NCBI GenBank assembly: GCA_003635195.1
Contig: PYIY01000195.1
Coordinates: 13,961-77,960, forward strand
DNA from: Candidatus Poribacteria bacterium
Lineage (GTDB): Bacteria; Poribacteria; WGA-4E; WGA-3G
DNA length: 64,000 bases
Direction: 5' to 3'
The notes under the pieces were generated by a model that made no database searches, was not told the DNA's origin, and worked only from the letters and a program-made list of their open reading frames with translations. Below are positions 1,118 to 49,946 of the stretch, piece by piece. The position numbers were made by a program, and so were the translations under genes. How positions within the stretch are numbered: the stretch's first letter is position 1; each line of letters starts with the position of its first letter.

Positions 1118-1200
1118 ATGGTTATCAGTTGTCGGTTGTTGGTTAACGGTTAAGAGTCCTTTCTGGCAGTGATACAATCTATAACCTACACAAGAACCCT
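1118..1200. repeat. Hexamer-repeat palindromic element
   Basis: gttatcagttgtcggttgttggttaacggttaagag ... cctcttaaccgaaaaccgaaagg. Confidence 0.4.
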
Positions 1201-1226
1201 CTTAACCGAAAACCGAAAGGATTTTT

Positions 1227-4555: not shown

Positions 4556-5542
4556 TTATTGCGAGTTCCACAAGTAGTTTATGTTGAATTTTACTGGATC
4601 CTCAGCAGCGACTACTCCTTCCATTCGCACTTTTAAATCTAAAAGCTCTGCGGATTGCGTTGGATAGAAGAACTGAACACCCACTTCGTTATCGGGACCA
4701 ATGAATTGTGCAAAACCGGTTATATCATCATCTGTTATCTGTCTTCCATTTATCGTAACTGTTACGCCGCTCTCGCTAAGTGTCGGTGGATTTTGGGCTA
4801 TTGTTCCCTCTGGGTAGTATACCCAGATAATCCATCCGTGTCCATCATTAGTATCATCTGGATTATTGCTGTTATCGCCGTTGTTATCACCATTGGTATT
4901 ATCTGGATTATCGCCATTGGGTGAACCGCCGTTATTGTTGCCGTTGTTCCCACCGTTGCCGTTATTACCGTTGTTCCCACCGTTATTATTGCCGTTGTTC
5001 CCACCGTTGCCGTTATTACCGTTGTTTCCACCATTATTATTGCCGTTGTTCCCACCGTTGCCGTTATTACCGTTGTTTCCACCGTTATTATTGCCGTTGT
5101 TGCCGTTATTACCCGCATTGCCGTCATTATTGTTATTTCCACCCTGTCCGTTAGGCGTTGATGGGTCTCCTGTCGTATCCGTCGGTGTCTGTGGGATCGG
5201 GACTCTTTCTGCGCGTACAACAGGTTTCCCTTCATGATAGAAGATATACAGCTGCCGCTCCGGATAGAGGTAGATAGCCGGTCCGTTGGTGGTATCTGCG
5301 CCTGTTGCGAGTGTAAGTTTTAGGCAGGTTGAATCAAGATCATCCTGAAAGCAGACAGCATTTCCATCGGTTGAGACAAGATAGCGATCCACTTCATGAA
5401 CAGTCAACGTTGAACCTGTATAAGGCATATCGGAGCATCCAGTGATAGCAAAAAGGATCACGAGGGTTCCGGTGATGAATTTCGCGGGTGTAGGTTTAAA
5501 TTTTTTCGGGTTCCGGGAATTCATTTGTGATGTTTTTCTCAC
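4556..5542 (-). CDS. Lipoprotein with expanded Asn/Gly-rich 17-aa tandem-repeat linker; paralog of 5846..6607
   Basis: Lipobox LFAITGC is present. A central (NNGNNGNGGNNGNNNGG)n low-complexity array is encoded by a 51-bp DNA tandem repeat. N- and C-terminal domains align with the neighbouring lipoprotein (CSDMPYTGS...VC..D..D..C.KL; GW.I.VYYP). Confidence 0.7.
   Translation of the reverse strand: MRKTSQMNSRNPKKFKPTPAKFITGTLVILFAITGCSDMPYTGSTLTVHEVDRYLVSTDGNAVCFQDDLDSTCLKLTLATGADTTNGPAIYLYPERQLYIFYHEGKPVVRAERVPIPQTPTDTTGDPSTPNGQGGNNNNDGNAGNNGNNGNNNGGNNGNNGNGGNNGNNNGGNNGNNGNGGNNGNNNGGNNGNNGNGGNNGNNNGGSPNGDNPDNTNGDNNGDNSNNPDDTNDGHGWIIWVYYPEGTIAQNPPTLSESGVTVTINGRQITDDDITGFAQFIGPDNEVGVQFFYPTQSAELLDLKVRMEGVVAAEDPVKFNINYLWNSQ
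4905..5110. repeat. 51-bp in-frame tandem repeat (about 3.5-4 units) inside lipoprotein gene
   Basis: The unit ccgttgttcccaccgttgccgttattaccgttgtttccaccgttattattg recurs in direct tandem. It encodes GNNGNNGNGGNNGNNNG units on the minus strand. Confidence 0.7.
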
Positions 5543-5617: not shown

Positions 5618-5790
5618 AGCGAGAAAACCTTGAAGAAATCCGCAGAATAGTTGTCAGTTGCCAGTTTTAGAAGTTTCCAGTTACCAGTTGCCAGTTACCA
5701 GAAAGAGAGTCTCGAACTATCAAAAACTTTTTTAGCTGGTTACTGGTCACTGGGTACTGGCGACTGCTACACTGGATGCTGTTAACTTCA
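5618..5790. repeat. Hexamer-repeat palindromic intergenic element between the two paralogous lipoprotein genes
   Basis: A left arm ccagttaccagttgccagttaccag and a right arm ctggttactggtcactgggtactggcgactg form a long imperfect inverted repeat. It is flanked by GAAGAAA.CCGCAG and CCCAAGCAAA module fragments. Confidence 0.5.
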
Positions 5791-5845
5791 AAAGCAAAAA
5801 CACCCTTATCAAAGCCCGCCAAGCAAATACCCCAAGCAAAATCCT

Positions 5846-6607
5846 TTACTGTATCGGTTGTAAGCGGAGGATATTTTGGGTATTGTCAGCTTCTACGCTG
5901 TCTCCGTTGACATGGAAGGTTGCTATATTGGCAGGTACGACTCCGTCTACCTGAATTGTTATTTCTGGAGTTTGCGTTTTGACGGAAAATCGAACGCCGC
6001 GTCTACCGTCGTTTTTGTTAATTTGGGTGAATTCGGTGATCTCCAGATCGCGTTGCCTATTGGTTGGGATTGTCTTTCCTTCGGCGATTCTGATGCCGAG
6101 TCCGCTGGTTTCGGGTGTGTTACCGCGGTTCGCTTCACGGAATTTGCTTGGATAATATACCTCAATGCTCCAACCTTCGGGTATATAGTTGGTATCACCA
6201 CCGTTCAGATCGACATTTGATGGCAGTTCGGCTTTGCCTGCCTCTACCAATTCCTGTACAATCTGGCTGGTATCCATGAGTCGTTTTGCTTCCAGTATGG
6301 TTCGCCCTTGATAATTAAAGACATAGGCGATGTTTGTTGGATGAACGTGGACAGTCGGTGTATAGTCTATACTCGTCGGGTCGATTTCTGTTTTATCCAA
6401 CAAAAGTTTTACACAGATTGCGTCGAATCCATCTTCCAAGCAGACGGTATCTTGTTCTATTGTGTTAAGATACTGGTCCAGGTCGCCGGAGGTTACTACG
6501 GGTCCTGAATAAGGGATGTCGGTGCAGCCTGCTATGCTGGTAAGTATAATGAGCAGGCTGCTGGTTAAAAAGGTTATGTTGCTAATTTTTATTTTTATTT
6601 TTTTCAT
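5846..6607 (-). CDS. Lipoprotein, paralog of 4556..5542 (no repeat linker)
   Basis: Signal peptide with lipobox SIAGC is present. Conserved N-terminal block CTDIPYSGP...LD.YL...E.D.VC.ED.FD.ICVKL and C-terminal block GWSIEVYYP are shared with the neighbour. Confidence 0.7.
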   Translation of the reverse strand: MKKIKIKISNITFLTSSLLIILTSIAGCTDIPYSGPVVTSGDLDQYLNTIEQDTVCLEDGFDAICVKLLLDKTEIDPTSIDYTPTVHVHPTNIAYVFNYQGRTILEAKRLMDTSQIVQELVEAGKAELPSNVDLNGGDTNYIPEGWSIEVYYPSKFREANRGNTPETSGLGIRIAEGKTIPTNRQRDLEITEFTQINKNDGRRGVRFSVKTQTPEITIQVDGVVPANIATFHVNGDSVEADNTQNILRLQPIQ

Positions 6608-7239: not shown

Positions 7240-7414
7240 ACTTGACATCACCGTAAGTGAGTTTTACAGATTTCCGAAGGGTTTTATAGTAAAGTTTAGA
7301 ATTAATAAGGACACGCCACCCCGGTTCGGTTAGGAAACCGCGAAGAAACACCCCAGCAAAAACCCTACCGGGGGAGGAAAGTGTCTCTTTATTTTTAGGT
7401 TTCACTATAATCTC

Positions 7415-13425: not shown

Positions 13426-13439
13426 TTTTTTAATTTTCC

Positions 13440-13665
13440 TTGCGGTTTTTTAACTTTCCTTGCGGTAGAACAACGTAGGTTTCGTATTTCACGCGCCTTC
13501 CTCAAGAGCCGCCCTCCACTACGTTACGGGCTACGGTTTCGGTCTTTCAGGTTAGGATTTTTAATTTTCCTTGCGGTAGAACAGCGTAGGTTTCGTATTT
13601 CACGCGCCTTCCTCAAGAGCCGCCCTCCACTACGTTACGGGCTACGGTTTCTGTAACGCGCCCCC
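13440..13665. repeat. Tandem direct duplication (about 2 x 120 bp) carrying three TTTTCCTTGCGGT leader modules
   Basis: The unit ttttaattttccttgcggtagaaca(a/g)cgtaggtttcgtatttcacgcgccttcctcaagagccgccctccactacgttacgggctacggttt is repeated head-to-tail directly upstream of the 13425 start codon. Confidence 0.6.
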
Positions 13666-15582: not shown

Positions 15583-15682
15583 TTAGTTATCAGTTATCAG
15601 TTCTCGGTTATCAGTTAAAGAAGCGTTTGGAATTACCGGAATTCCGCTTTAAGTGGTTACTGATAACTAAGAACTATTTTTC
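15583..15682. repeat. Hexamer-repeat palindromic element in the coxIII leader
   Basis: gttatcagttatcagttctcggttatcagttaaag is followed after 40 nt by the inverted arm ggttactgataactaagaac. Confidence 0.45.
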
Positions 15683-18912: not shown

Positions 18913-19032
18913 TGAATGAAGATTAAAAAATTAATTCGGCAATTTCTTAGCGAAGTCCGGTGCGGTTGCAAACCGCACCTACCGGGCCTGGGAAGAATTA
19001 GAATTACCGATTTAAATACTGAAACTTCATAA
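18913..19032. repeat. MITE-like palindromic element (copy 2 of 1227..1345)
   Basis: gaatgaagattaaaaaattaattcggcaatttcttagcgaag-CCGGTGCGGTTgcaAACCGCACCTACCGGGCCTGG-gaagaattagaattaccgatttaaa. The terminal arms attaattcgg(t/c)aatt / aattaccgat are inverted repeats. Confidence 0.55.
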
Positions 19033-20909: not shown

Positions 20910-21575
20910 CTACTGAGGCCATCTTTCTTGTACCCAAGCATCGTAGTCGGTTTGTGCATGGACGTTGAGATAGCCGCGCATCTCTGAATGTCCGAATCCA
21001 CAGAGTTCTGCGCATGGAATCTCATAACGTCCTGCCTTTTCGGCCTCAAACCAGACGTTGATAAATCGGTTAGGCAATGCATCCTGTTTGAGACGTAATT
21101 GCGGCACAAAAAAGCTGTGGATGACATCCTCAGAGGTTAATCGGATATGCACGACCGCGTTGACTGGTACATGCAATTCGTTTTCCAATTCGAGGTCATC
21201 GTCAGTCCCGAATTCGTTATCGGGCCCGGGATACGTCATATCCCAGTTAAACTGTTTTCCGCTGACCTGGACGACAACATCTGGGTTTTCAGGAAATTGT
21301 GTTGGGGACTTAATCTTATTCCACTGCGGGTAACTGAGCATTGCGAGTACAAAGACAATCACCGTTGTTACCGCTGTCCAGATGATTTCCAGCGTTGTGC
21401 TCCCCTCAATGTAGTGTGCCTTCTTGCCTTCCTGATGTCGATATTTAATTAGGAAAACAATAAGGGTGCCGATTACAAGGATAAACACAACGAGCGTAAG
21501 CCAATAGATAGCGTGAAAGAGGTTATCAACGCCTTGCCCGAACGTTGATACGTTGTCTGGTAGCCAGTGAAGCAT
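20910..21575 (-). CDS. ctaC: Cytochrome c oxidase subunit II (CuA domain, no fused cytochrome c; aa3-type)
   Basis: Two N-terminal TM helices are present. The CuA site H...CAELCGFGHSEM is complete. Confidence 0.9.
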   Translation of the reverse strand: MLHWLPDNVSTFGQGVDNLFHAIYWLTLVVFILVIGTLIVFLIKYRHQEGKKAHYIEGSTTLEIIWTAVTTVIVFVLAMLSYPQWNKIKSPTQFPENPDVVVQVSGKQFNWDMTYPGPDNEFGTDDDLELENELHVPVNAVVHIRLTSEDVIHSFFVPQLRLKQDALPNRFINVWFEAEKAGRYEIPCAELCGFGHSEMRGYLNVHAQTDYDAWVQERWPQ

Positions 21576-21587
21576 CCAGTCCTCCTT

Positions 21588-21720
21588 TTAAGGGTTATCG
21601 GTTGTCAGTTGTCGGTTGTCGGTTAAGAGGTTTTGATGTAACAATTCACGACTTCTTGGCGTGTGCCCCGCTGGGGGAGATCGTTACAAACTGATCCCTG
21701 TAAACCGATAACCGATACCT
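21588..21720. repeat. Hexamer-repeat palindromic element (coxII leader / ABC permease 3' end)
   Basis: gttatcggttgtcagttgtcggttgtcggttaagaggttttgatg ... ctgtaaaccgataaccgatacc. Confidence 0.5.
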
Positions 21721-21722
21721 AT

Positions 21723-22508
21723 TTAATTCCTTTGTGCAGACGCTGTAAGCGTTGCGCCCACGTACGTCAAAATACAAAACAGACCAGTAATCAGTAGAGA
21801 GAGTGTCCAAGGCGTTCCCTCTCCGAAAGCCTTTGCGGTGGTGTCAAGGTAAAGGCTATGTCGAAAAGCCGCAAGCCCATACGTTAACGGATTGAATTTC
21901 ATTGTCCATGCTAACCAACCGGGTACGCCAGTACTCGGGAAAAACGCGCCAGAGAGAAGCCAAATCGGAATGAGTAAGAGATTCATAATTGCATGAAACC
22001 CTTGTGTTGAATCCATCCGCCACGCGATCAGTAATCCGAGATTTGTCAGACCAAACGCTAAAAGTGCCATCACACCGAGCGAGAGCAAGAAAGAGGTTAC
22101 GCCAAACCGAATGCCTATCATCGGTGTAAATAGTAGTAGCAACAAACCTTGCAAGAGTGCTAACGTTGTTCCGCCTAACGCCTGTGCGAAGACAATCTGC
22201 CACCTTGGCACAGGTGCGACGAGTACCCCTTGTAAGAAACCTTCGCGCCGATCATTCACAACAGAAATTGTAGCGAAAATGGACGTAAAAAGCAATACTA
22301 AAACGACGATACCCGGATAAAAGTATTCAATATAACTGGGTCCGTCCACTGCCCCAGAAGGTTGAAAAGAGGCACTTAAACCACTTCCGATGAGAATCCA
22401 AAAAACCAATGGTTGCGCAATAGCACTGAAGAGTCGACTCCGTTGGCGATAAAATCTGATGATTTCGCGCCACCAAATCGTCGTAATAGGCAGCAGAATG
22501 CCCTGCAC
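21723..22508 (-). CDS. ABC-2 type transporter permease
   Basis: 6 TM ABC-2 membrane domain; paired with the upstream ATPase. Confidence 0.8.
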   Translation of the reverse strand: MQGILLPITTIWWREIIRFYRQRSRLFSAIAQPLVFWILIGSGLSASFQPSGAVDGPSYIEYFYPGIVVLVLLFTSIFATISVVNDRREGFLQGVLVAPVPRWQIVFAQALGGTTLALLQGLLLLLFTPMIGIRFGVTSFLLSLGVMALLAFGLTNLGLLIAWRMDSTQGFHAIMNLLLIPIWLLSGAFFPSTGVPGWLAWTMKFNPLTYGLAAFRHSLYLDTTAKAFGEGTPWTLSLLITGLFCILTYVGATLTASAQRN

Positions 22509-22511
22509 GAA

Positions 22512-22650
22512 ATACTTCCTTTAATAGTTGTCGGCTGTCGGTTATCAGCCATCAGTTAAAGAGTGGTTCGTAACATTTTGCCCCAACTTGGAGTCCTTCA
22601 GAGAGGGGTAAATTGTCGCATCAAAGCCTCTTAGCCGACAGCTGACAACT
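22512..22650. repeat. Hexamer-repeat palindromic element between ABC ATPase and permease
   Basis: tagttgtcggctgtcggttatcagccatcagttaaagag ... cttagccgacagctgacaactattgg. Confidence 0.5.
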
Positions 22651-23629
22651 ATTGGACGAACGGATTTCCTGTCAACTTTACGAAAACATCCTCCAGTGTC
22701 GGTTTGCCAAGTCGAACGGATTGAATTTCATCAGGAAAAGCAGCGACCACATCCCGAACAAATTCATGTCCATGTTTACACTCAACGCGCAGTCGGTTAT
22801 CAGCGAATACGGTTGAAACACCGAACCTTTCGGCAATAGTGGTCCCAAGGGTTTCATTGTCTACACCCTCTATGAGGATAACATCACCACCCACTTGGTT
22901 TTTGAGTTCATCAGGTTGACCGAGAGCAACCAATTGACCTACATCCAAAATGCCGATCCGATTGCATGCCTCGGCATCATCCAAGAGATGTGTTGTCAGC
23001 AAAACGAGGATATTCTCTGCCTGTGCAGTTGTCCTGAGGTAATCGTTAAGTTGTCGCCGTGCGGTCACATCCAACCCACTGGTCGGTTCATCAAGGAGTA
23101 GAACGCGAGGGGAATGGAGCAAGGCTTTCGCGATTTCAACCCGTCTTTGCAAACCACCGGATAGGATTTCAACTCGCTCTTTTGCCCTATCGGAAACGCC
23201 AAAACGTTCAAGAAGTTCCGCAGTTCGGTAACGTAGGGTCTTACCAGTGAGTCTATATAGATGTCCGTGGTGTTTTAAATTTTCAACGACGGTAAGTTTG
23301 GTATCTAACCCTGGGTGTTGAAAAACGACCCCTAAAAGGTTCCTAATCGCTTTCACCTCGGTAGCTAAATCATGTCCGAGGATACGAACAGTGCCAGTGG
23401 TTGCTGGCATCAGTGTAGACAGGATTTTAAAAAGGGTCGTTTTCCCACTTCCGTTTGGTCCGAGGAGCCCAAAAATCTCGCCACATGAGACATCAAAACT
23501 TATATTGTCAAGTGCCTGCCGTTGCTGATAAGCATAGGAGAGATTCTCTACCTCAATTCGACTTTCGGAAACCTTCGGCTTTCGGCTTTCAGTATTTATG
23601 GAATGTAAAACATCCGTTTCTACCACCAT
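22649..23629 (-). CDS. ABC transporter ATP-binding protein
   Basis: Walker A GPNGSGKTT, signature LSGGLQRRV and Walker B LLLDEPTSGLD are present. Confidence 0.9.
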   Translation of the reverse strand: MVVETDVLHSINTESRKPKVSESRIEVENLSYAYQQRQALDNISFDVSCGEIFGLLGPNGSGKTTLFKILSTLMPATTGTVRILGHDLATEVKAIRNLLGVVFQHPGLDTKLTVVENLKHHGHLYRLTGKTLRYRTAELLERFGVSDRAKERVEILSGGLQRRVEIAKALLHSPRVLLLDEPTSGLDVTARRQLNDYLRTTAQAENILVLLTTHLLDDAEACNRIGILDVGQLVALGQPDELKNQVGGDVILIEGVDNETLGTTIAERFGVSTVFADNRLRVECKHGHEFVRDVVAAFPDEIQSVRLGKPTLEDVFVKLTGNPFVQ

Positions 23630-23669
23630 GAAAACCTCTTGCTGACCGCTGATCGCCGATTGCTGATGG

Positions 23670-24455
23670 CTACTTCAGTTTCAGCGTGAAATCTTGCGTG
23701 ACAGTGCCGCCGGCCTCTACGGTAACAGCGGCAGGAGCCTCGTTGTTCGTACCACAAGCTTCATGCCAATAGCCGAGCTTATATTCGCCCGCGGGAACAT
23801 CTTCAAGCGTGAATTCACCCTTTTCGTTGGTTACAGCAAAATAGGGGTGTGGTACATAAGCGACCCATGCGGACATCCACCCGTGAATATCGCATTTCAT
23901 GGGCACAGGGCCTTCCGCCTTTTTGACAGCCGCGAGCGGCATTTTCTTCCGGTTTTTTGTCTGCTGTTTGTTAACCGGGGTGTTGATGACACTGAAGATA
24001 TGAACGTTGTGATTAACTCTATCACTATTGAGCATCGTTAGCCGAGTATCAAGCGGAATAATCTGGACGTGAGGTTCAAACCTGCAGCCCTTTTGGTCGA
24101 TTTCTAACTTGGTCTTTTTGTCAAAATCTTTGCCCTCTGAAACATCGATTAGGTAGACGATTGTATTTTTTAAAGCGTTGCCTTCACCGACGACCAGTGA
24201 CTCATCAAACTTCTCCTCAGCCCCACAAACCTTCTGATCTTTGGTGATTTCAAGTTTCTTCATCTCAGGCACGTCCCCTTCAAACTTCACTACACCGCTA
24301 ATCGTGCCGCCATTGTTCACAGCCATGGGTTTATACTTTTTTTCAGGAAATATCAACGTTTCGACTTCGCCTGCATCGGAGTCAGCCGCGAAGACGCTAC
24401 CGACAAAGCAGCACGCGAGAAGTACCGTGAGACTTGCCAACAAATAGGATTTCAT
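23670..24455 (-). CDS. Secreted cupredoxin-like (type 1 copper motif) protein with C-terminal CarboxypepD_reg-like beta-sandwich; paralog of 31570..32319
   Basis: Signal peptide is present. HNVH upstream plus CDIHGWM (C-x2-H-x2-M) forms a blue-copper ligand set. The C-terminal GEFTLEDVPAGEYKLGYWHE is transthyretin/CarboxypepD_reg-like. Confidence 0.6.
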   Translation of the reverse strand: MKSYLLASLTVLLACCFVGSVFAADSDAGEVETLIFPEKKYKPMAVNNGGTISGVVKFEGDVPEMKKLEITKDQKVCGAEEKFDESLVVGEGNALKNTIVYLIDVSEGKDFDKKTKLEIDQKGCRFEPHVQIIPLDTRLTMLNSDRVNHNVHIFSVINTPVNKQQTKNRKKMPLAAVKKAEGPVPMKCDIHGWMSAWVAYVPHPYFAVTNEKGEFTLEDVPAGEYKLGYWHEACGTNNEAPAAVTVEAGGTVTQDFTLKLK

Positions 24456-24467
24456 TTTTTTCTCCTT

Positions 24468-24600
24468 TAATAGCCGTCAGCCATCAGCCTTCGGCTTTCA
24501 GTTAAGAGATTTGTTGTGACAGTAACAGTTAGCATAACCGCTACAAGTTGTTTACTGACTGCTGACTGCTGACAGCCGACAGCCATTGGGATTTACATGT
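24468..24600. repeat. Hexamer-repeat palindromic element
   Basis: tagccgtcagccatcagccttcggctttcagttaagagatttgttg ... ctgactgctgactgctgacagccgacagccattgg. Confidence 0.5.
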
Positions 24601-27099: not shown

Positions 27100-27215
27100 T
27101 CTTTTAATTTTCCTTGCGGTTCGGTCAGGTGAGTTCAGGGTTTGACGTTCCGTGACGTATATCTGAAGAAACACCCAAGCAATACGCAGAAATACCCAAG
27201 CAAAAACACCCTTTC
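27100..27215. repeat. 110-bp intergenic repeat, second copy (see 7955..8062)
   Basis: Near-identical to 7955..8062 (attttccttgcggttcggtcagg...gaagaaacacccaagcaatacgcagaaatacccaagcaaaaacaccctt). Confidence 0.6.
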
Positions 27216-28789: not shown

Positions 28790-28990
28790 ACTTTTCCTTG
28801 CGGTTCAGTGACCTGGGTTTGGATTTTTGAGGTGCCATTCTTAAATCCGCTCTCCATTCCATTACGAGTTACGCACTTTGTTCTACCGCTTTCTAACTAT
28901 TCCTTGCGGTCAAATGACCTGGGTTTGGATTTTTGAGGTGCCATTCTTAAATCCGCTCTCCATTTCATTACGAGCGGGTTTGTGATTAAT
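28790..28990. repeat. Tandem direct duplication (about 2 x 105 bp) with leader module
   Basis: The unit (t)tccttgcggt.a.tgacctgggtttggatttttgaggtgccattcttaaatccgctctccatt.cattacgag is repeated twice upstream of the 28783 start. Confidence 0.6.
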
Positions 28991-31441: not shown

Positions 31442-31568
31442 GGTTTTCGCTGTCAGCGGACTCCCTTTCGGTTTTCTGAACCTATCAAATCAAACAGACT
31501 ACCAGCCGTCAACTTTCGGTTTCCGTCAGCAAGGAAGGTTTCTTGCTGACCACCGATTGCTGACTGCT
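31440..31568. repeat. Hexamer-repeat palindromic element
   Basis: gctgtcagcggactccctttcggttttctg ... ccgtcagcaaggaaggtttcttgctgaccaccgattgctgactgc. Confidence 0.4.
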
Positions 31569-31569
31569 A

Positions 31570-32794: not shown

Positions 32795-32908
32795 ATGGTT
32801 TTTAGTTATCAGTTATCAGTTGTCAGTTACAAGAGGTTTTGATAGTCCTAAAGTCTTTCTGAGAACTGAAAGGTTTTCGGAGAAAACCGCACTGACCACT
32901 GATAACTA
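32795..32908. repeat. Hexamer-repeat palindromic element with conserved core shared with 54698..54845
   Basis: gttatcagttatcagttgtcagttacaagaggttttgatagtcctaaagtctttctgagaactgaaaggttttcggagaaaaccgcactgaccactgataactatta. Confidence 0.55.
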
Positions 32909-35900
32909 TTAACGTCCCAACGAGATCATATAATCTCGGACGAGTTGAATCTGTTTTTCAGCATCATTGCCAGCGTAACCATCAACTGCCATATGTTGTC
33001 CGCCGACGAGTGGCCAGGCTTGTGGCATCGCCGTTCCGGGTTGGAACGACTGCGGGTCTTTCATCCAATCAATGAGCCAATCCGGCTTGAGACGTTCTTT
33101 TGCCAATGAAAGGTCGGGCCGTCCCGCCTTGTCACTTCCTTCAGGAATAACTTCGCCTTGTGAAGGGTGGCAGGAGATACACTGGAGCTCGTCAAAAATC
33201 TGTTTACCGACGCGCAATTCAGCACGCGTTGGGATTGGCACTTCAAGCGTCTCGTAAGGGTAGGGTTCGTCGTCAAGTGCAGAGAAGTATTCAACAAGCG
33301 TGGTTGCTTCATCATCAGATAGCCCAAATGTCGGCATCCGTACTTTGAGTCCGTAGCGGACATCAGACGGCTCCTTGAGGAAGGTAAACAACCAGTCTGG
33401 ATAGACTCTCGCGCCTTCAGCCTTCAACGGTGGCGGGGCAAACTGCTTGGCAACCATCTCACCCAGCCCCTCATGTGCGATGATAACGTCGCGATAATCG
33501 CCGCCTGCGCCTTCAATCTCGTGGCATCCGGCACAGTTGTATCTCTTCACCAGTCGTCTACCGGCATCAATACGGTTCAATTTCTCGGATCGGTTATGGA
33601 TATAACTGAGCGGGTACTTCTCGGGTTGGAAGCTCTTCAAAAGCACGGCGAGTGCCCTTGCATCTTCTTCGTTAATTTGGAAGACGGGCATCCGCGAGAT
33701 AATGCGCCGGGTTTGGTAACGCCGCGGGTTGGTAACCTTACCGATTGTCCACCCGGTCCAACTATGTTCAACGTCTACTGTATCGCCAAAGTCAAGTTCA
33801 TCAGCGAATTTCGCGCCGAATTCGCCAAGGTCCGCCCCGACTTTTGATTCATTCTCAAAGCCGGGAATTTCATGGCAACCGAAACATCCGTAAGTTCTAA
33901 CAAGTGCCTCACCCTCTTTCACGTCTACTTCACCGATAGACTCAGTCGTTGCATTAGGTGTCGCCTTCTGTAAACTCATCAAATAAGCGACGACGTTGTC
34001 AACTTCGCGAGTGCTTAGCCGCAAGCTCGGCATACTCGTATCGGGATCATAAGCCTTTGGATCGCGAATCCACTGCCGGAGATAACTGGGAGTGACCTTC
34101 GCGCCGACGCTATCGAGTGCTGGTGCGAAATCGCTGCCTAAGCCGTCAACGGCGTGACATGTGAGGCATCCGACGGTTTTAACGGTCTCCTCGCCTGCTT
34201 TAATAACGCTCTCAGATTTGGAATAGTTTACAGAGGCTTCATCAAGGTTTGCATCATGCATCGTTGCGAGATATGCTGCAATAGATTTCACTTCATCGAC
34301 GATACGGAGGACATAATCGTTGGAATAGGGATACTCCGTACCATCATCCGCTTTAACAATGATACCGTTGTCGGTTTTCGTGACAGCACCGGTGCGCGTT
34401 CCGCCGTTCTTGAGGTAGACGACTTGGCTCATACCTTCGGCGGGGAAGAAGTTCGGCATTGTTGCATTTGGCAGATGTGCCTCGGGTTTCTTAATCCAAC
34501 TTTCGAGCCAATCTGTATCTTTGACCTTACTACCGACTTTTGCGAGCGATGGACCGACCTTGTTAATGTTTTCGATTGCACTGTATCCCTCTACAGCGTG
34601 GCAACCGTGGCAACCGAGGTCTTCAAAGAGAGCCAACCCCTTCGTCAAATTTGGTGCATAATCCACAGGTTCATCTGTTTCAGGATCTACGCCGTAATCT
34701 AATTTCATGACCCCATCGTGGCAACGGCGGCAGTTAGATTCCATATACCCCTTCGTCTTTTCGGACGTTCTGCCGGTGTGTTCATCCAATCCGAGTACAG
34801 GACTGAGCCAGTATTCAGCATGCGTTAGGGCGTGGGCAGCTTTCGCTGTCAGTGCTTGCCCTTGTCCACCGTGGCACGGTGTACAGCCAAATCTATCAAT
34901 AGGATGCTTTTCAAGGAGGACATCGCGGTGCGGATGGGTCTGAAGGACGGACCGGTAGCCGGTTTCATAAGAAATTTCAACTTCACCGAAGACATCCACA
35001 TCACTGAAGGTAAGCGTCCCGTTCTCTTCCAGTGTATATTCGTCTGCTTCCGCATCAAATCCATCAATTATGATACTCTCACTACCCTCCTTAATACTTG
35101 CATGTTTGAGGCGTTGTACGACGGGATTTGCGCCATCACCTTCTACCTCAAATATCTCCTGTGCGGATTGTTCATAGCCGCTTCTATCAGCAGAAAAGTG
35201 GCATGTAGCACATCTATCTGCGGTGTAATCGAAGTCTTCAAGATAATATTGCGTGATCGTTCGGGTTTCACGGAAAGGGTTCTCTAATAGGCTACCGAGG
35301 AAGGTTCGTTTGATACCGCCAACGGAATGCAGTTTTTCTTGTAGACGTGCGACTTCGTCATACTTCTCCTTGTCGGCTTGTAGTGCCTGAAGGGATGCTT
35401 GCGCGGCAGCGATGCCTTCCGCTATCTCTGGATCTGTCGCATTATATTTCTGAGCGATGAGGTAGGTGCTGAGCGCCTGCTGTGGATCACCATTGGTTTG
35501 ATAGAATCGCGCCAAAGTTTTGTTGGCATCCGCGAAGACCGCCTCTGCTGCCAAGACAGCCTCAGTGAGTTCACTTTCAATTCGGGATTCAAGTTCATCT
35601 AATTTCTTTTTCCACTTGTCAACAGTTGCATTATATTTACCCTTTGCTTCGTGGAGGCTGTGCTGATATTTATAATTGATGGCATCCGATTCGCTCTGCC
35701 GGAATTTGCGTTCCTGCAGCGCTTCGTCAAGCGTAACCTGAGCGTTCGTTACCTCTTTAGTCAACCTCCCTAACTCTTTTGCGTCGGGTTCTTGAGGTGT
35801 AGAAAGTTCAGGCAAAGCGAGCTTTGCATTCTCCAATTCCGCGCGTGTTTTCTCATATTCATATTGATAAAACTGCTGCTGGATCTGCTTCCATGGACGG

Positions 35901-36019: not shown

Positions 36020-36060
36020 GAACTTTACTCCCTTTTTCTAATTTTCCTTGCGGTTCGTTC
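36020..36060 (-). promoter_or_regulatory. Conserved leader module ACCGAACCGCAAGGAAAATTA upstream of the octahaem cytochrome gene
   Basis: Plus-strand TAATTTTCCTTGCGGTTCG abuts the start codon region. The same module precedes minus-strand starts at 7944, 13425, 27099, 28783, 36968 and 53908. Confidence 0.4.
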
Positions 36061-42234: not shown

Positions 42235-45200
42235 CTATTGAAAATCAAGCACTTCATCAATCTCTGCCATAATCCGCAGCGTTTCTCCTACTGCAACCAA
42301 AATTCCAGAATACTGCCGCACCTCCGCATGGGTTAACGCCGTGTTTTTTCTATCCTGCAACCACTTCTTACACACCTGATACGCCCCAATCTTATATTCC
42401 CACACCTCAGCAGGTACATCCGTGAAATGTTGATCGTCATTAATCCAAACGTGTCCACCCGCATAGCGAACTTTTGAGACAACGGCATTGCCTTCACCTT
42501 CAAACCGATGTAGCGGTGAAATCTGTACATCTTTCAAAAGATGCCAATCAATCAAATTCTGCCCCAACGCTGCAAGTTTTCGGAAGTATTCAATATCTTG
42601 CGGCAAAGGGATATATGGAAATCCATATTTCAAAAACTCATAGTAACTTTCACGATAGATAGGGCTATAAAGATGGGCGTAGATATAGGCGATAATTTCC
42701 TCTGATGAAACGCCTTGAGGGGGTTTTGATAATGCAGTTTGCGGCAAATCGAATTTTTCTGAGAGCACTTTAAGGAAATCAGGGTTGAAATTATGTTGGC
42801 GTTCTGTTGTCAATTCTGCCCTATTGGGATCCTCATAAATATAGAGCGGGAATACGTGTACAGACTCACTTGATCCACTTGAGAGATAACAATTCTCTGT
42901 AATTTCGTCGGTTATTAAAATATGTTGCCACTGCTTGCCTCCTTTGACTATACGACAGACACAAAGAGCAATATTTTCGTTTAGCAAATGAGGCATAATA
43001 TCATTGCGTGGACTCGTGTGAAATCCGCAGGATCGTCCAGTATAGTAGGTTTTACGAACATCAAAAGGACGGTGTCGAATAGGTACAATATACTGTTTTG
43101 CATTGGAGTGGTCGCGGAGATCTTGTTGTGCCAGATGGACTTTCCAATATCGGTTGTCCAAATCATATTTTTTCTGCACCTCGTTTTCGGAGAGTGACAC
43201 AAAGTTTTGTACAGTCTCGCGTAACGTATTCTCTGTGCGATGAATAGTTACTTCGTTACGTCCGGTGACAATTCCGCTTGAACCGGACTGGAAAATCTCA
43301 TTTAGCTGCCATCCATGTTTGTATATTGCCTCGCGGTTTGGGACAGAATCTTGAGGGACAAAAAGGTAGAGCGGAGATGCGGGATGCAATTCACACCAAT
43401 CAGTTTTTTGGACATCAGTTTCCAAAAGTGTTCTATATTTTTCCTCTCGATTTCCCCACATATCCGCGTAGTAGCATGTTGCTTTGCCCGGAGTGCTGCT
43501 TTCTTTGACGCATAATAGAATCGCAACCCCCACTTCTATGTCAAATACGTTCTGATCCTCTTTTCCATCTGGAATAGCTTCCTCTACTATTATACTGCCG
43601 TGCAAATTAAGTAGGTATATGGAGTCAAAACTGTCTAATAAACTCTGCCGCATCCTACGAAAAGTTAAACCGTCAAGGAAGCTATTATTCACAATGTAAC
43701 CAACAACACCTTCGCCATTTTTATCAATTCGCCACTGTGCCCACCGGATAAACTTAACATAATCGGATTGCAGTGATTTTTTCTGGTCCCAGATCCCCAA
43801 CAGTTGTCCATCTACTGGTTTGTAATCCTCAATGAGCTGTCCAATAAAAGTTGGTTGGTCATCATTATCGCTACTCGGATTTGCCGAGGCTAGGGGATAG
43901 GGTGGATTACCAAGAATGACGAGGAGTGGTTCGTCCCGCTTTACTGAAACCGCTGCATTTGCCTCATCAGAGATAAATCCTGCAAAAGGTAAACGTTGCT
44001 CGCGCTCTATAGGTTCCTCTAACGTATTAGTAAGATAGACGCGGAGACGTTCGGTTGCCTGCCATCCTTGCGCTTGTAGAAACAGACTCAACTTCAGATG
44101 TGCAATCGTATAGGGTGCAACCAACAACTCAAATCCGAAAAGTCGTTTGACCAATTGTGCATTGATATACCGGTTCCAGTCGCCTGTACCGTAGGTCGTT
44201 GTGACGTATTCACGGATGTGGTCAAGTACTGCAAAAAGAAAACCTCCGGTGCCCGTCGCGGGATCAAGAATGAGCGTGTTGTCATCGGAAAGCCCATCAG
44301 ATCTGTTAAGTGCTGTCTTGAGCAAAACATCAACAGATCGAACAATGTAGGAGATAACCTGTGGCGGTGTATAATAGACCCCGCGTTCCACGCGCAGCTG
44401 CGGGTCATATTCAGCAAGAAATGTCTCATAGAAATGGATCACTGGATCTTCAAGATGAGTTCTCGCAATAAACGCCGTGCGAAGCATCTCTGTAGGGACA
44501 TTTTGAAGAAGGTTTGCAATGTCCTCCAAAATATAAGTAATGTTTGCATTAAGATTTGGCGAATCTATTTGGTGGAAAAGTTGTCGCAAAAATGGATTTG
44601 ACTGCGGGAGCGCGCTGGCGGCAGTTTCTCGTGAGAAGTTTGTCGCGTTAGGTAACGCGCAGCGTGCAGCGAAGAGTCCATACGCTAGTGTCTGTGCGTA
44701 CATATCCGCAAACTTGCCAGGAGTCAATGTAGAGAGGAGAAGTTCCTTAAAGGCCGAGAACATCGCGTAGGTGTCGCTGTTTTCATCGGTGAGCCTCGTT
44801 TCGATTTGTGTTTGGAGTTCACGGGTTCGGCGTGCAAGATGCTTCGCGAGTGCCTCCGGAGTGGTGATTTGCATGGAGCCCGCACTGAAAAATCCATCTA
44901 ACAGGCTTTCCAGATTTTCAATTCCGTTGTCAATTAGTGCTATCGCGCGCGATGTCCCATTCGTATATAACCGAAACTCCACGAAATTGGTGAGGATAAA
45001 GTTATCAAGGTTCTCAATAAAACGTTCATTCTGCACCTTGGCGTGCCCAGTGAGTGCATCAAGGTTCCTGCCATAAGCCTCCGCCTCAATATAACCGAGA
45101 GGGAATAGACCTTCTCTGACAACAAAATCCGGTCTGCCGATTTCTAACTGTCGCGGCTCGTGGGTAATCCTGATAGTATATTCTAAAAGTTCAGCGGTCT

Positions 45201-45314
45201 GTTCCAAAAAGTCTTTGAGATGTCCGTGTAAGGAGAGTTCAGCGGTAGCATCGCCCTGTTCTCGGGTCTGTTGGATGTTTTGCCTGTACGTTCTACAAAT
45301 CTGTTGAAATAACA
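42235..45314 (-). CDS. MmeI-family (Type IIL) single-chain restriction-modification enzyme homolog: N-terminal PD-ExK-like domain + N6-adenine DNA methyltransferase + TRD
   Basis: MTase motif I ILDPATGTGGFLFAV and motif IV LGNPPYP are present. The N-terminus GRPDFVVREGLFPLGYIEAEAYGRNLD...LTNFVEFRLY parallels MmeI GFVDLFWPGILLIEMKSRGKDLD...LVCDFQRFRLT (from memory). Start taken as MLFQQIC at 45314 (GGAG SD); the ORF track extends to 45432. Confidence 0.75.
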
Positions 45315-45499
45315 TTAGGCTCCTTTTTAATTCAGATAGTTTTAGAATCGAATATAAATCGCGTTTGTCCTCTCTACTACCAGTACTATTTGTTGAAAAT
45401 GAAAACAGTTGATAATGTTTTGGTAACAACAATACATTAAAACCCTAAGTATGGTAGTGGTATCTGAACGAGCTTTAACTCTGTTCACTGTTAGGAATA

Positions 45500-47449
45500 T
45501 TATCTTCCCCGATTGAGATCTTCAACAGTTTTCTTGATACCTCTTGCAATATTTGTAAATGCCTCATCCTGATTTTCCCATAGCGTCACAGCCTTCACAC
45601 CTCTCGGTAATGCCTGAAGTTTACCAAAGGGTGCCTCTTCCCAATCAACAGGACGCAGTATTATAGGAATTACCCGGGCCTCTCCGACACTGTGTCGTTC
45701 CATAGCACGCTTCATTTCAATATCATAACAATAATCGGATGCAAGGAAATCAGCACTAACAAGCAGAAGTATTATGTGAGCAGTATTCAAGTGTTCATGA
45801 ATCTCTCCTTCCCATTCTCTACCAGCACTTATTTTCCGATCATGCCAATCTGTAATAACTCCCTGTCTTCTCAAAATGGAGAGGTGGTTCTCAAGTTGTT
45901 CTCGTAACTCCTCATCTCTGTGGGAATAAGAATAAAAAAGCTCAACCCCACCCGGTTGCGATCCTGAACCGATTGTTTGATCCTGTTGTTCTTGAATTAA
46001 ATTGGATAAATACTCCCTCTCTGCAATCATTTGGAGAAACGAACCCTCTGGTAATGGAAGAAAAGGATCATCATGTATTGCTTGCATTCTGCGGATGGCG
46101 GCCTCCACTTGTTCACCATGTCGATGACAGACTTTCCAAACTTTCTCCACCTTCTCTTTTTCACTCGTCCCAGGTATATAATCAATGAGATCAATTAACT
46201 CATTGAGCATCTTATAATAAAAATTATCATAATTTAGCGCAGTAAAGTGCTTTGCTTGGCGAACATAATCAATCAGCGTAGTTCTGACTTCATCCTTCCC
46301 AACACCTTCCTTAATAAAATCAAACGTGTAAATACCACTGTCATCTACATCATCTAATTCCGAGCCATAAGCGGCAAATCTTCGATCTATACATTGCGAA
46401 CAACCACCACAATGAGTTGCTTGGCCTGTATGTTGAAGTGTTTGACTGCAAGACACTGTGCTTGTGATCAAATCCTCTCGTCCAGCTTCAGATAGAATCT
46501 GGTAGATTTCTGTTTTGGTTTTCCATAAGAAAGGGGTGGCGATTTTAACTTTCGGTTCATAGATTGTTGCAAAGAAATTCTCAAGACACATTATCGTTTT
46601 TGGATGTGTCGTCCGGCTAGCTCTTGCATTCATCAGATCTTGTCTCTTTGGAAAGTTAATCGAAGTGATTCCATTTTCATAAACAAAAATCTCCCTCTGG
46701 GAAAGAGCATGTGACAAAGCGTAAGCGATAGCAGTATACAAAAAAGAACGAGTTCGTTGCGTTTCCTCCCTCGCTCGAATTTGGCGTAAACTACAATAAA
46801 ATTTGTAATGTCTGATCCGATTCGGATAACGTTGATGAAGTGCTCTAACTAACTGGTCCTGTGTTCTTGCAGTCTCTGGCTGACCAGAACGGTGACTAAT
46901 GAGGCAGAGTTGATCAGAAGAATTTTCAAGACAGTCAACAATCCCAGCCAAGGAATCAAGTCCTCCTGAAAAAAGAATCACTTTTGTATTTTGCTGGGGT
47001 TCAATTTGAAACGTTTCCTGATCAAACAAGTTTGTCGGGTCAGTTGAGTGCCCGGATTGAAAAGAGAAATGATACGTCTGATCGCCGGACATAAAGACGA
47101 GTGTTTCTTTGAGTCTTTCCTTGACATCAGCCCTATCCCAGAAAGCAAAATCTCGAACTTTAATGACAAAGTAAAATGACCTTGCCCAACTATGGGACTC
47201 TACACTGGCTTTATTTCCACGAGAGGTTAACCTATCGGCACAAAAAACATAGGCAGCAATCTCTAACAAATCAAGGATACGATCAGGAAAATGAGATACA
47301 TAGTGTATAAAACTAGGCAGGCCAAGTTTTACATTTGGGATCTTGTTGGAAAATTCTCGATATTCAAGGACTAAATTATCATCTTGAGCCCATTGCTGAG
47401 GTGGATCTGCACCATTACATAGTACAATTCGTGGAGGGACATCTCTCAC
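45500..47449 (-). CDS. Fusion protein: unknown N-terminal domain + QueC-like PP-loop ATP pyrophosphatase domain + C-terminal TIR domain
   Basis: PP-loop KVILFSGGLDSLAGI is present. The QueC-type C-terminal Zn motif reads LWKTKTEIYQIL...STVSCSQTLQHTGQATHCGGCSQCIDRRFA; compare E. coli QueC LMWIDKAETW...[21 protein letters not shown]. The final ~140 aa are a bacterial TIR domain (LFYSYSHRDEE...W...LLLVSADFLASDYCYDIEM with the conserved Glu). Confidence 0.7.
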   Translation of the reverse strand: MRDVPPRIVLCNGADPPQQWAQDDNLVLEYREFSNKIPNVKLGLPSFIHYVSHFPDRILDLLEIAAYVFCADRLTSRGNKASVESHSWARSFYFVIKVRDFAFWDRADVKERLKETLVFMSGDQTYHFSFQSGHSTDPTNLFDQETFQIEPQQNTKVILFSGGLDSLAGIVDCLENSSDQLCLISHRSGQPETARTQDQLVRALHQRYPNRIRHYKFYCSLRQIRAREETQRTRSFLYTAIAYALSHALSQREIFVYENGITSINFPKRQDLMNARASRTTHPKTIMCLENFFATIYEPKVKIATPFLWKTKTEIYQILSEAGREDLITSTVSCSQTLQHTGQATHCGGCSQCIDRRFAAYGSELDDVDDSGIYTFDFIKEGVGKDEVRTTLIDYVRQAKHFTALNYDNFYYKMLNELIDLIDYIPGTSEKEKVEKVWKVCHRHGEQVEAAIRRMQAIHDDPFLPLPEGSFLQMIAEREYLSNLIQEQQDQTIGSGSQPGGVELFYSYSHRDEELREQLENHLSILRRQGVITDWHDRKISAGREWEGEIHEHLNTAHIILLLVSADFLASDYCYDIEMKRAMERHSVGEARVIPIILRPVDWEEAPFGKLQALPRGVKAVTLWENQDEAFTNIARGIKKTVEDLNRGR

Positions 47450-48231
47450 TTCTTACTGCTCTCCCGTTGTAATTCCTCACGCATCTTTCCAAAAGCGTGC
47501 CATAAAAATCCTTGAACCTCTTTTTTGCTAGGAATACCTTTTTTCGTATGTTGATTAAACCAACCTGCTGCGAAAGACTGTGTAATCTTCGCTGTTTCAA
47601 AGGCATTTGAAGAAATAGCATCAATGTGTTTTTCAAGATACTGCCCAAATTTAATTCGTTCATCAATACTACCTAAAGCTGCAGAAATTTCTCTTTCCAA
47701 AAAATACTCTAAATACCCCTGTGTAAATTTTCCGAAAAACAGACGCGATAATTCACAGAATCCCGCACCATTCCCTGCTTTACGCCATACTTCAAAAGGA
47801 TCTTTCAATGAATCCAAAAGACTAAGTGAATTCACGTGATTTTGATCATACCAAATAGAAATTGCTTCACTAGCAGCCTTTTGGGCAATTCCACTATATT
47901 CAAAAGAATCTTTTTGAGATGCAACATAAGCATTGACAGCTTTCGCAAAAGAAAGTGGTGTTGGATTATTAGGAAGTTCAATCCCAATATCCAACAACCA
48001 AACTTGTGGGTTTTCTTCACGCGAAGCAACAGCAAGATTGACTAGGAATTGAAACGTACCCAAAACACCACTATCTCGCTCAATATGACGAAATCGTGAT
48101 CTAACATTCTGAATTGTCTTTTGCGTAATATCCTCGATTTCAGTATCAGATACATGCCTTCCAGCAATCTGTTCAAAAATATCTCGCCACTTTTTCGTTT
48201 GGGGAAGAACAGACATTCGTTCATGACCCAT
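47446..48231 (-). CDS. Hypothetical 261-aa protein translationally coupled to the QueC-TIR gene (ATGA overlap)
   Basis: AT-rich coding ORF with no recognised domain. A possible R-x4-H (RSRFRH) motif is present. Confidence 0.5.
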   Translation of the reverse strand: MGHERMSVLPQTKKWRDIFEQIAGRHVSDTEIEDITQKTIQNVRSRFRHIERDSGVLGTFQFLVNLAVASREENPQVWLLDIGIELPNNPTPLSFAKAVNAYVASQKDSFEYSGIAQKAASEAISIWYDQNHVNSLSLLDSLKDPFEVWRKAGNGAGFCELSRLFFGKFTQGYLEYFLEREISAALGSIDERIKFGQYLEKHIDAISSNAFETAKITQSFAAGWFNQHTKKGIPSKKEVQGFLWHAFGKMREELQRESSKK

Positions 48232-48372
48232 TACTTGATCTCCATATCACAATTTCTTATCGGATTCCCTTATTCCTTGCGTATATTGACAAGGACTTTC
48301 CTTTCTGGCTTTAGCTATCAGAAATCAGAGCCAGTTGTTGACTCCGTGTGGTTCAACAGCATAAGTCCACCT

Positions 48373-49293
48373 TTAATCTTGGTTTTTGACAAGAACTACC
48401 TTAATAGCAGATAAACCTCTATCCGTATGATGGATGTCAAATTTCACTTTTTGACCTTGTTGAAGCAAATTGACTTTTTCATTCAAAATTTGTGACTCAT
48501 GCACAAATATATCCGGATCATGTTCCTCACACGTTATGAAGCCGTACCCTTTGATTGTGTCGAACCATTTTACCTCTCCTTGTGTCCGGATTAAAAGCGG
48601 CGAAATTTCTCTTTCGATCATTTTAACGGCTTTTGAAAATGGAATCTGAAAAAATTCTCTATCCATTCGTATTCGATAATCACTCAGTAGTTTGAAAACG
48701 AGATTTTCTGCCTCTTTGGCATCTTCCACTTCAAAAACTGCTTTTGCAGAATACGGTATTAACACACCTGTTGCTGAGTTTATCTCCTTAACTCTGTCTT
48801 CTACAGAACGAGTAGTCATTCCGATCTTTAGAACATCAGGTTCATCTTTCCTTGACAAAATATACAACCAACCATGTTTCCCCTGAGAGACACGAATTTT
48901 TCTATGATTTTTCCAATGACTAAGGTAGGTCGGAAGGGTCCCGCTAATCAAAGTCCCACGTATCAAAAGTGCTTGTTCAAAATCACGTCCCTTTAGACTT
49001 TCCCGGAGCTTAACTAATAGGGAAACAATGGAATTCATTTCACTTCTAGGCGGATGGCCAAGTCTATCATAGACAGTAAACCAATTCCATTGGTCTTTCC
49101 TTAATGACCGATTAAACATACCTTTCAGTTCTGAAATAGCATCCAAATCTACCTGGTCTGGAGGAATTCCATCACTTAAAAAAAGAGATACAACATCTAC
49201 GGCATTATCAAAACGTCTTCTCATAGTTACCGACAAATCTGACATTCCAAATCCATATTTATGTATAGTCATCGGCGTTATCTTCTTTATCAA
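48373..49293 (-). CDS. T5orf172/MUG113 (GIY-YIG superfamily) domain protein with C-terminal cold-shock (CspA-like S1) DNA-binding domain
   Basis: GWLYILSRKDEPDVLKIGMTTRSVEDRVKEINSATGVLIPY...REFF matches T5orf172. The C-terminal GEVKWFDTIKGYGFITCEEHDPDIFVHESQI...GQKVKFDI is a cold-shock domain. Confidence 0.65.
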   Translation of the reverse strand: MIKKITPMTIHKYGFGMSDLSVTMRRRFDNAVDVVSLFLSDGIPPDQVDLDAISELKGMFNRSLRKDQWNWFTVYDRLGHPPRSEMNSIVSLLVKLRESLKGRDFEQALLIRGTLISGTLPTYLSHWKNHRKIRVSQGKHGWLYILSRKDEPDVLKIGMTTRSVEDRVKEINSATGVLIPYSAKAVFEVEDAKEAENLVFKLLSDYRIRMDREFFQIPFSKAVKMIEREISPLLIRTQGEVKWFDTIKGYGFITCEEHDPDIFVHESQILNEKVNLLQQGQKVKFDIHHTDRGLSAIKVVLVKNQD

Positions 49294-49384
49294 TCTTGGT
49301 TTGGTGTATTTGAAGCGGCTACTGCCAGTCTGTCATCAGAATCAAACTATGGTACAGGGTCATTACAATTTTAAGAAATTATAG

Positions 49385-49835: not shown

Positions 49836-49849
49836 ATCTCAAATCTCCA

Positions 49850-49924
49850 AGATTTGTCAACTATTTTCAATTTCCCCATAGAATTTGAAAAACTTTAAGA
49901 AAATGATTTCACTCTCTCAATGTG
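49850..49924. repeat. ~85-bp imperfect direct repeat, right copy (partner at 38691..38780)
   Basis: See 38691..38780. Same orientation. Together they bracket the AT-rich accessory segment. Confidence 0.5.
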
Positions 49925-49946
49925 AAAATTCTTCACCTAAAAACAT

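Follow-up and report, generated by a model that had tools for sequence, protein, structure and literature searches.

In a Candidatus Poribacteria genome, the spacers between genes of the same operons carry a family of 95-150 bp palindromes (n=10 in the 64-kb stretch of DNA analyzed here, hereafter the window) whose arms are arrays of tandem heptamers. We regard them as probably constituting a lineage-specific palindromic repeat family that is maintained at the DNA level and co-transcribed in the form of intercistronic hairpins. A first-pass annotation of the same DNA had listed ten such loci, each described as an arm of tandem short units and its reverse complement on either side of an interior of about 40-90 nt; all ten are real, the inverted partner arm being present at a distance of 40-100 nt in at least nine of them, and the broader proposal of a dispersed hairpin-forming family in intercistronic spacers is supported. 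The unit had been read as a hexamer, which has to be corrected: both Tandem Repeats Finder and period scans returned a period of 7, the former with period-7 arrays at 5649, 15581, 21593, 21703, 24555, 32804 and 54710, and in a self-match scan of periods 4 to 12 the period-7 runs outnumbered those of every other period. On the mRNA strand the consensus of the unit is YAACYGA. The forward arrays comprise 12 different units, the commonest being TAACTGA (7/29), followed by CAACTGA, CAACCGA and TAACCGA. The ten elements are given below with their gene context and the z-score of their predicted RNA fold relative to shuffled versions of the same element.

e1118, 1119-1222, minus strand: start-proximal arm of about five heptamers (1119-1154), short stop-proximal arm (1203-1218), inner stem TTAAGAG/CTCTTAA, Shine-Dalgarno (SD) sequence AAGGAG downstream; z -2.24.

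e5618, 5646-5772, minus strand: variant unit YAACTGG/CCAGTTR; annotated start codon at 5542; z -4.32.

e15583, 15583-15677, minus strand: between a 107-aa ORF and cox3; upstream TAG inside the stop-proximal arm; forward array TAACTGA TAACCGA GAACTGA TAACTGA TAACTAA, then TAAGGAG; z -4.57.

e21588, the element originally flagged, 21590-21722, minus strand: fills the spacer from an ABC-2 permease gene (21723-22508) to cox2 (20910-21575); stop-proximal arm 21697-21722 (AAACCGA TAACCGA as complement); start-proximal arm 21593-21629 (TAACCGA CAACCGA CAACTGA CAACCGA TAACCC), then AAAAGGAGG and ATG; RNA fold -36.2 kcal/mol, z -2.43.

e22512, 22520-22652, minus strand: from an ABC ATPase gene to the permease gene; arm opening with the TAG stop codon; core TAAGAG on both sides; z -4.70.

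e23637, 23569-23672, minus strand: variant unit GCNRTCR; core AAGAGGTTTTC in mRNA sense; z -2.06.

e24468, 24469-24588, minus strand: GGC/GCC variant of the unit (TGGCTGA/GGCTGAY), then ATTAAAGGAGAAAAAAATG; longest stem of the family, with 20 consecutive pairs; z -6.73.

e31440, 31500-31569, minus strand: compact hairpin of the variant unit GCNRTCR right after a TAA stop (TAGCAGTCAGCAATCGGTGGTCAGCAAG ... CTTGCTGAC ...); stop-proximal arm similar to that of e23637; z -3.24.

e32795, 32798-32912, minus strand: from the gene of a 1036-aa multihaem cytochrome to that of a 118-aa cytochrome c; 5' end TAA TAG TTATCAG, forward array TAACTGA CAACTGA TAACTGA TAACTAA; no SD; z -4.91.

e54698, 54700-54848, minus strand: from a DUF1501 gene to an RsmD-like methyltransferase gene; 33-bp internal tandem duplication; no SD; z -3.80.

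Read in mRNA sense, the elements follow a common plan, in which the upstream stop codon is followed by an array (TCRGTTR)n, often by TTAAGAG, by an interior of 40-90 nt, often by CTCTTAA, by an array (YAACYGA)n and finally by an SD sequence or the start codon itself. The regular pairing of the array with an inverted copy lets the spacer between the two cistrons fold as a whole into one long imperfect hairpin. On the plus strand the flagged stretch (21588-21720) accordingly reads GGTTATC GGTTGTC AGTTGTC GGTTGTC GGTTAAGAGGTTTTGATG and, about 70 nt later, AAACCGATAACCGATACC. In seven of the ten elements the stop-proximal arm, which is often opened by the upstream TAG itself, either starts within 0-7 nt downstream of that gene's stop codon or overlaps or contains it. 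At the other end, the strict forward arrays (2-4 units) stop 13-26 nt short of the start codon in 7/8 elements with such an array, degenerate units extending nearer to the start codon; e5618 is the positional exception, with 111 nt between forward array and start codon. All neighboring genes are on the minus strand and 10/10 elements lie between co-directional genes, so that both the siting and the usual span from stop to start described in the first pass hold. AAGGAG-type sites follow the array in six or seven of the ten elements. An SD-like sequence is missing from the 19 nt before the start codon in three (e31440, e32795 and e54698), and in e32795 and e54698 these 19 nt contain only heptamers. 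The conserved core that had been proposed stands in part: TTAAGAG is frequent among the copies, whereas the longer AAGAGGTTTT is exact in only four of the ten, at 21625, 32831 and 54731 on the plus strand and at 23631 on the minus strand, most of the remaining elements having TTAAGAG-like forms. The core of e23637 and that of e31440 are on the opposite strand, and the AAGAGGTTTT 10-mer also recurs in an unrelated repeat at 49621.

In e23637 the core AAGAGGTTTTC is immediately 5' of the only canonical start codon of an ABC ATPase gene (22649-23629), the ATG at 23629, which thus lies in the loop of the element; given this start, the start-proximal arm (23569-23598) would be translated. The arm heptamers would then form an N-terminal extension, TESRKPKV, that is missing in two other genomes (L001 and L002), and the gene call in the related genome L161 begins like that of the window. 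Either the element has supplied the N-terminus of this protein or the start has been mis-called. The repeat families in Poribacteria operon spacers can create false N-terminal extensions as well as spurious ORFs. Small antisense ORFs begun by AAGAGG-N5-ATG (for example ATG TAA in e21588) were also considered and judged incidental.

The arrays are far more frequent than expected by chance. Searching the window for two or more consecutive NRRCYGR units yielded 18 arrays, as compared to 1.7 +/- 1.3 (maximum 6) in 100 dinucleotide shuffles, an approximately tenfold excess. Fourteen of these 18 arrays are intergenic, intergenic DNA making up 10.8% of the window. The YAACYGA doublet YAACYGAYAACYGA gave eight matches against 0.02 expected, and 8/8 are on the minus strand, which is the coding and mRNA strand. 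Arrays of at least three units occur 7 times per 64 kb in the window and 0.24 times per 64 kb in a comparison set of 1.86 Mb of loci from other bacteria. Among spacers of at least 40 nt, an element was found in 10/33 co-directional spacers and in 0/7 divergent or convergent ones, numbers that are too small for significance and that fit with an operon-internal position.

All ten elements fold better than their own shuffles, with z-scores ranging from -2.06 to -6.73. Stable hairpins after stop codons would be expected of intrinsic terminators or attenuators separating transcription units, and the elements share this property. We nevertheless consider such a function extremely unlikely: no U-tract follows the arms, the stems are long and AT-rich, the next gene starts within about 20 nt and leaves no room for a promoter, and terminator-like matches between 14.5 and 33.5 kb number 19 as against 18.7 by chance, with one weak match inside an element. 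Promoter-like and terminator-like sites were both found at chance level only. The first-pass view that the elements are neither REP sequences nor classic terminators agrees with these results.

Are the hairpins selected as RNA? Duplexes between an arm and its own partner are more stable on average than duplexes with arms of other elements (-27.0 vs -22.8 kcal/mol; permutation p = 0.01), a modest advantage in a comparison that is blurred by tolerance of G.U pairs. Moreover, template switching in quasi-palindromes makes matching between own arms equally expected without selection at the RNA level. Over 21 elements, we counted 62 G.U pairs and 11 A.C mismatches in the sense strand and 84 and 13, respectively, in the antisense strand, and detected no mRNA-strand bias in G.U pairs, A.C mismatches or minimum free energy; the palindromes therefore behave as symmetric DNA, and RNA-level selection is not demonstrable from them, although transcripts would still be expected to form the hairpin. 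A search of the whole window against Rfam returned 0 matches at the gathering score. With a variable number of units and an interior that can be inverted (see below), a single covariance model for the family would be meaningless.

The history of the elements was followed in related genomes, the comparison covering 64 kb of the window genome and 13-23 kb per relative. The closest relatives by COX1 are two Candidatus Poribacteria genomes; exact look-ups of two other proteins encoded in the window yielded no match. Gene order in the respiratory cluster (8981-32319 in the window) is kept in both, in metagenome contig L081 and likewise in the loci fetched via orthologues of the 1036-aa cytochrome, amounting to at least nine Poribacteria genomes. 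Integron attC sites were rejected as candidates, given this conserved gene order in at least nine genomes, the respiratory operon nature of the genes, the lack of an integrase in the ORFs scanned, and arm ends (GTTATCA/GTTGTCA) that do not fit the GTTRRRY core site. Heptamer arrays are found in L081, L161, L162, L286, L287 and L288, whose orthologues are 87-93% identical, and are absent or nearly absent from the same sites in L163 (85%), L164 (81%), L165 (78%), L001 and L083. Relatives devoid of heptamer arrays carry other palindromic repeats in the same spacers, and L165 has a different repeat unit elsewhere. Within the clade, the spacers turn over far faster than the genes that flank them, and the operon spacers of Poribacteria are landing pads for several fast-turnover repeat families. 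One such other family, a long palindromic repeat (TGTAGGTCGGGTAGAGGAACGAAACCCGACA ... TGTCGGGTTTCGCTCTACCCGACCTACAA), occupies two spacers of the same gene cluster (L001:6330-6425 and L001:11890-12010) in L001, a more distant Poribacteria genome without heptamer arrays, and L164 has yet another family at two sites.

Individual elements are gained and lost even between close relatives. The site orthologous to e21588 is occupied in L081 by an unrelated spacer of 73 nt and that of e22512 by another unrelated spacer, the element being missing in both cases, and the site of e15583 also has a heptamer hairpin in L081. At the e24468 site (site C), a forward array beside the ribosome-binding site (...CYGATAACTATTAAAAAGGAGAAAAAAATG) is present in the window and in six close relatives, and the rest of the spacer differs; in L162 this site consists of a 24-nt spacer with the direct array alone and no inverted partner. 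At the e31440 site, three extra forward heptamers stand just before the ATG in L162, L287 and L288. Finally, the hairpin that L162 has at the site of e54698 is built from another unit, AAGTTAT, and its core is TTAAGAGG.

At the site of e32795, four relatives share the interior found in the window (ACAAGAGGTTTTGATAGT ... ACTGAAAGATTTTTCGCAGAAAAATCG), in mRNA sense in the relatives and antisense in the window. Alignment of the e32795 interior to L287, L288 and L161 gave scores of 91, 78 and 56 as plus strand and of 16-17 as minus strand, and the outer arms and flanking genes have the same orientation as in the relatives. The interior is inverted in place, a pattern that would be the product of recombination between the inverted arms. 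It follows that no constraint acts on the direction in which the interior lies. Together with lineage restriction and rapid turnover, this inversion argues against a conserved, oriented structured-RNA motif; the data favor a repeat at the DNA level, whose only persistent features seem to be the hairpin and the start-proximal array.

Dispersed intergenic palindromes of about 30-150 bp are well known in bacteria, among them Correia/NEMIS in Neisseria, ERIC/IRU in enterobacteria and REP/BIME; they are co-transcribed with their neighbors and their RNA hairpins alter processing and stability. These families have a fixed consensus, and their arms are not made of tandem short units. Correia elements have 26-bp termini and TA duplications, and REP sequences are short (20-40 nt), GC-rich imperfect palindromes with a conserved head, often arranged in alternating clusters and linked to RAYT. 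The Poribacteria elements sit singly in their spacers, over 95-150 nt, with arms of AT-rich heptamers. They could in principle be REP/BIME-like DNA sites for gyrase, IHF or nucleoid organization whose RNA has no role, as their symmetry, the lack of strand bias and the free orientation of the interior would allow. This is very unlikely in our opinion, however, as the elements fit exactly between stop codon and ribosome-binding site, the location of all YAACYGA doublets on the coding strand points to constraints set by translation, and neither the REP hallmarks nor a RAYT gene were found in the window.

Mobility of a more classical kind also has to be weighed. The near-identical loops that had been noted for e32795 and e54698 are part of a longer match: blastn aligns the two elements over their whole length, with 88.6% identity across 105 nt. 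Both have sharp ends (TTAGTTA ... AACTATTA) within unrelated flanks, and e54698 is a paralogous copy of e32795. A whole-length paralogous pair at unrelated loci, inverted termini and presence or absence differing between species are all features of MITEs, and the heptamer arrays could be the terminal inverted repeats of a non-autonomous transposon with a transposase encoded elsewhere; TnpB and group II intron genes are indeed found near the cluster in relatives. We consider this reading improbable. No transposase is encoded in the 64-kb window, and the loci compared revealed neither a clean empty site nor a target-site duplication; at the sites without the element in L081, the spacer differs as a whole. 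A TA dinucleotide flanks 5/9 elements on both sides but continues the heptamer pattern, and being part of the repeat unit it cannot be claimed as a target-site duplication. Arm length and unit type vary from copy to copy, unlike MITE termini, and apart from the single whole-length pair most copies share arms and a short core only. The strict readings as MITE, REP sequence, terminator and integron attC site each fail in at least one defining feature. The mobile-element genes seen in relatives comprise TnpB (OrfB_IS605) and a group II intron reverse transcriptase (L163:17010-18122, L286:2489-3604 and L286:4975-6633), in or beside the respiratory cluster of the relatives, and none is present in the window.

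Under the DNA-level repeat that we prefer, replication slippage would alter the number of units, template switching within the quasi-palindrome would keep the arms matched, recombination from arm to arm would flip the interior, and recombination or transposition would copy whole elements between sites. Slippage, arm matching, inversion, copying and gain or loss have the support of the comparisons as dynamics at the DNA level. Lying inside co-directional gene runs, the elements would be co-transcribed with the genes, and the hairpin would then juxtapose the upstream stop codon and the downstream ribosome-binding region. The elements may affect processing or translation. Stems of about 20 bp are plausible determinants of processing or stability, as substrates of RNase III or otherwise. 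The part likeliest to affect translation initiation would be the YAACYGA tract, which is A/C-rich and unstructured and adjoins the start codon; it is the best-conserved half of the element, can stand alone, and replaces the SD sequence at some genes.

Tandem heptanucleotides are not new as such. The cyanobacterial STRR sequences reportedly described by Mazel et al. in 1990 (CCCCAGT, TTGGTCA and CAACAGT) are abundant in intergenic DNA of particular lineages; they resemble the Poribacteria arrays in being tandem 7-nt intergenic units and differ in the units themselves. We know of no description of STRR as paired inverted arrays bracketing intercistronic spacers, and our search of the literature on Poribacteria repeats and on STRR stem-loops found nothing relevant.

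Once the unit is read as a heptamer, the start-proximal arm can be related to the TAACTGA direct repeats already described upstream of start codons (MacGregor 2015; PMC4679880). These are intergenic sets of 2-6 tandem copies, sometimes overlapping the end of the upstream ORF, that are mostly forward, most often end 1 nt before a start codon and usually leave no RBS; related heptamers are rarely repeated, and the distribution outside the Beggiatoaceae is scattered over Cyanobacteria and five Bacteroidetes (PMC4679880). The Poribacteria arrays are similar in their unit with its near variants, in copy number, in forward orientation and placement upstream of start codons, in sometimes overlapping the end of the upstream ORF, and in the variation of presence and copy number between close relatives. 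As to the RBS, three of the ten elements lack an SD-like sequence. In contrast, they have as a rule an inverted counterpart next to the stop codon of the upstream gene, for which BOGUAY offers one inverted case among 170 sets (PMC4679880); their units are much more heterogeneous, most of the genes keep an SD after the array, and a TTAAGAG/CTCTTAA inner stem recurs among the copies. The systematic inverted partner of a TAACTGA-type array is new, as is the phylum Poribacteria for this repeat.

Two other systems offer partial parallels. In Haemophilus influenzae, the 5'-UTR of hmw forms a hairpin with a heptamer-repeat arm that is an RNase III substrate and alters expression (PMC12721329). As in Poribacteria, tandem 7-nt units make up one side of a long hairpin in the mRNA immediately 5' of a gene; unlike in Poribacteria, this is a single locus, the other arm is G-rich and non-repeated, and the system is a phase-variation switch. 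It nevertheless provides a tested precedent for the RNA-level consequence proposed here. In Geobacter metallireducens, tandem heptanucleotide sites with the consensus MTYCTGA have been annotated as DNA binding sites (PMC2700814). These share with the Poribacteria elements the organization in tandem heptamers ending in CTGA (five in that case), a dispersed multicopy family and a proposed regulatory role; the unit is however different and no hairpin architecture was reported.

For the Beggiatoaceae, a site for an RNA-binding protein or the ribosome has been proposed (PMC4679880), and a dedicated post-transcriptional control of the same kind deserves consideration in Poribacteria. The YAACYGA arrays would bind an RNA-binding protein or the ribosome (S1, a cold-shock-domain protein or a CsrA-like protein), and the inverted arm would mask them in cis until the ribosome finishing the upstream gene melts the hairpin, an unmasking that would couple translation across long spacers. 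Much of the geometry is consistent with this: forward arrays always face a start codon, at 13-26 nt in 7/8 cases, the stop-proximal arm abuts the stop codon in 7/10, no SD-like sequence occurs within 19 nt of the start codon on its 5' side in e31440, e32795 and e54698, the window and six close relatives retain the forward array of site C while the rest of the spacer changes, and the array can stand alone, as in L162. In addition, an unrelated contig, L228, has four consecutive units with G.U wobble pairing in the sense strand only, and a similar idea was reached for the direct repeats (PMC4679880). On the other hand, units as heterogeneous as TAACTGA, CAACCGA, TGGCTGA, TAACTGG and AAGTTAT fit poorly with a single sequence-specific binder, close relatives lack elements at orthologous sites with no visible change to the operon, and the clade has no sense-strand wobble bias. 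We therefore hold this explanation to be unlikely overall. Persistence of the forward array beside the RBS at the e24468 site could nonetheless reflect selection for function instead of neutral persistence.

A bolder version, which we offer as a long shot, is that the paired arrays are a heptamer-coded device for translational coupling, in which a protein or the 30S subunit reads YAACYGA unit by unit. The inverted arm would keep the tract masked within a hairpin with its foot at the stop codon of the upstream gene; a ribosome terminating there would unmask it and hand over to the next cistron across 100-150 nt. Slippage in one arm or the other would adjust the ratio between neighboring gene products. 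Such a device, if real, would be a new and evolvable means of setting stoichiometry inside operons. The occurrence of the array alone and of the array plus its mask at the same gene in sister genomes could make the function of the repeat directly testable.

A single scan of IMG/VR gave at least 120 contigs with arrays of three YAACYGA units, and 6/120 of these have inverted pairs; the repeat class is thus widespread, and the hairpin form exists elsewhere as a minority. TAACTGA-type repeats were earlier assigned to a narrow set of phyla, and together with the Poribacteria elements these matches make the class far wider. Two of the IMG/VR hairpins, in unrelated contigs, are worth describing. At L228:3886-3955, in a contig with a GC content of 0.66, the stem joins four GTTGTCG to four CTGACAA units with consistent G.U wobbles on one strand only and is followed by AGGAATTACCATG, and L183:6126-6247 is a near-perfect heptamer palindrome with 5-6 units per arm.

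The window contains several other repeats. A second palindromic family is organized round the hairpin CCCGGTAGGTGCGGTTTCCTAACCGCACCGG, at 1245-1328, 18931-19014, 49408-49431, 49666-49694, 49733-49767, 58332-58353 and 7321-7340; the first two copies are 88% identical over 86 nt, and three copies lie in a 653-nt spacer (49294-49946). A third, with GAAGAAACACCCAAGCAAA(A/G)ACCCC, occurs at 27181-27210, 49485-49550, 58418-58484 and 5780-5850 and also in a related Poribacteria genome (L161:14560-14600), the copies at 49485-49550 and 58418-58484 being 94% identical over 67 nt. Other duplications comprise a tandem one of a 111-bp unit at 13447-13651 (1.8 copies, 97% matches), a direct one of 75 nt (95%) at 28794-28974 in another intercistronic spacer, and a 51-bp tandem repeat at 4929-5101 (3.4 copies, 96% matches) inside the 328-aa ORF 4556-5542, the gene downstream of e5618, which is without Pfam match. 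A leader motif, CCGCAAGGAAAGTTAAAAAA on the mRNA strand, stands directly 5' of three start codons (13426-13466, 36034-36055 and 53911-53932), and start codons of more distant Poribacteria are preceded by a similar ACTCCGCAAGGAAT (sites A and B of L163 and L164); these motifs may be a ribosome-binding leader typical of the lineage. Finally, the cluster is interrupted at 42235-49293 by a defense island of low GC content (0.40-0.44) encoding a Type ISP restriction-modification enzyme, a TIR plus QueC-like protein and, at 48373-49293, a T5orf172/GIY-YIG-like protein with a C-terminal cold-shock domain; the same position is occupied by SIR2 plus NACHT in L164 and by nothing in L162.
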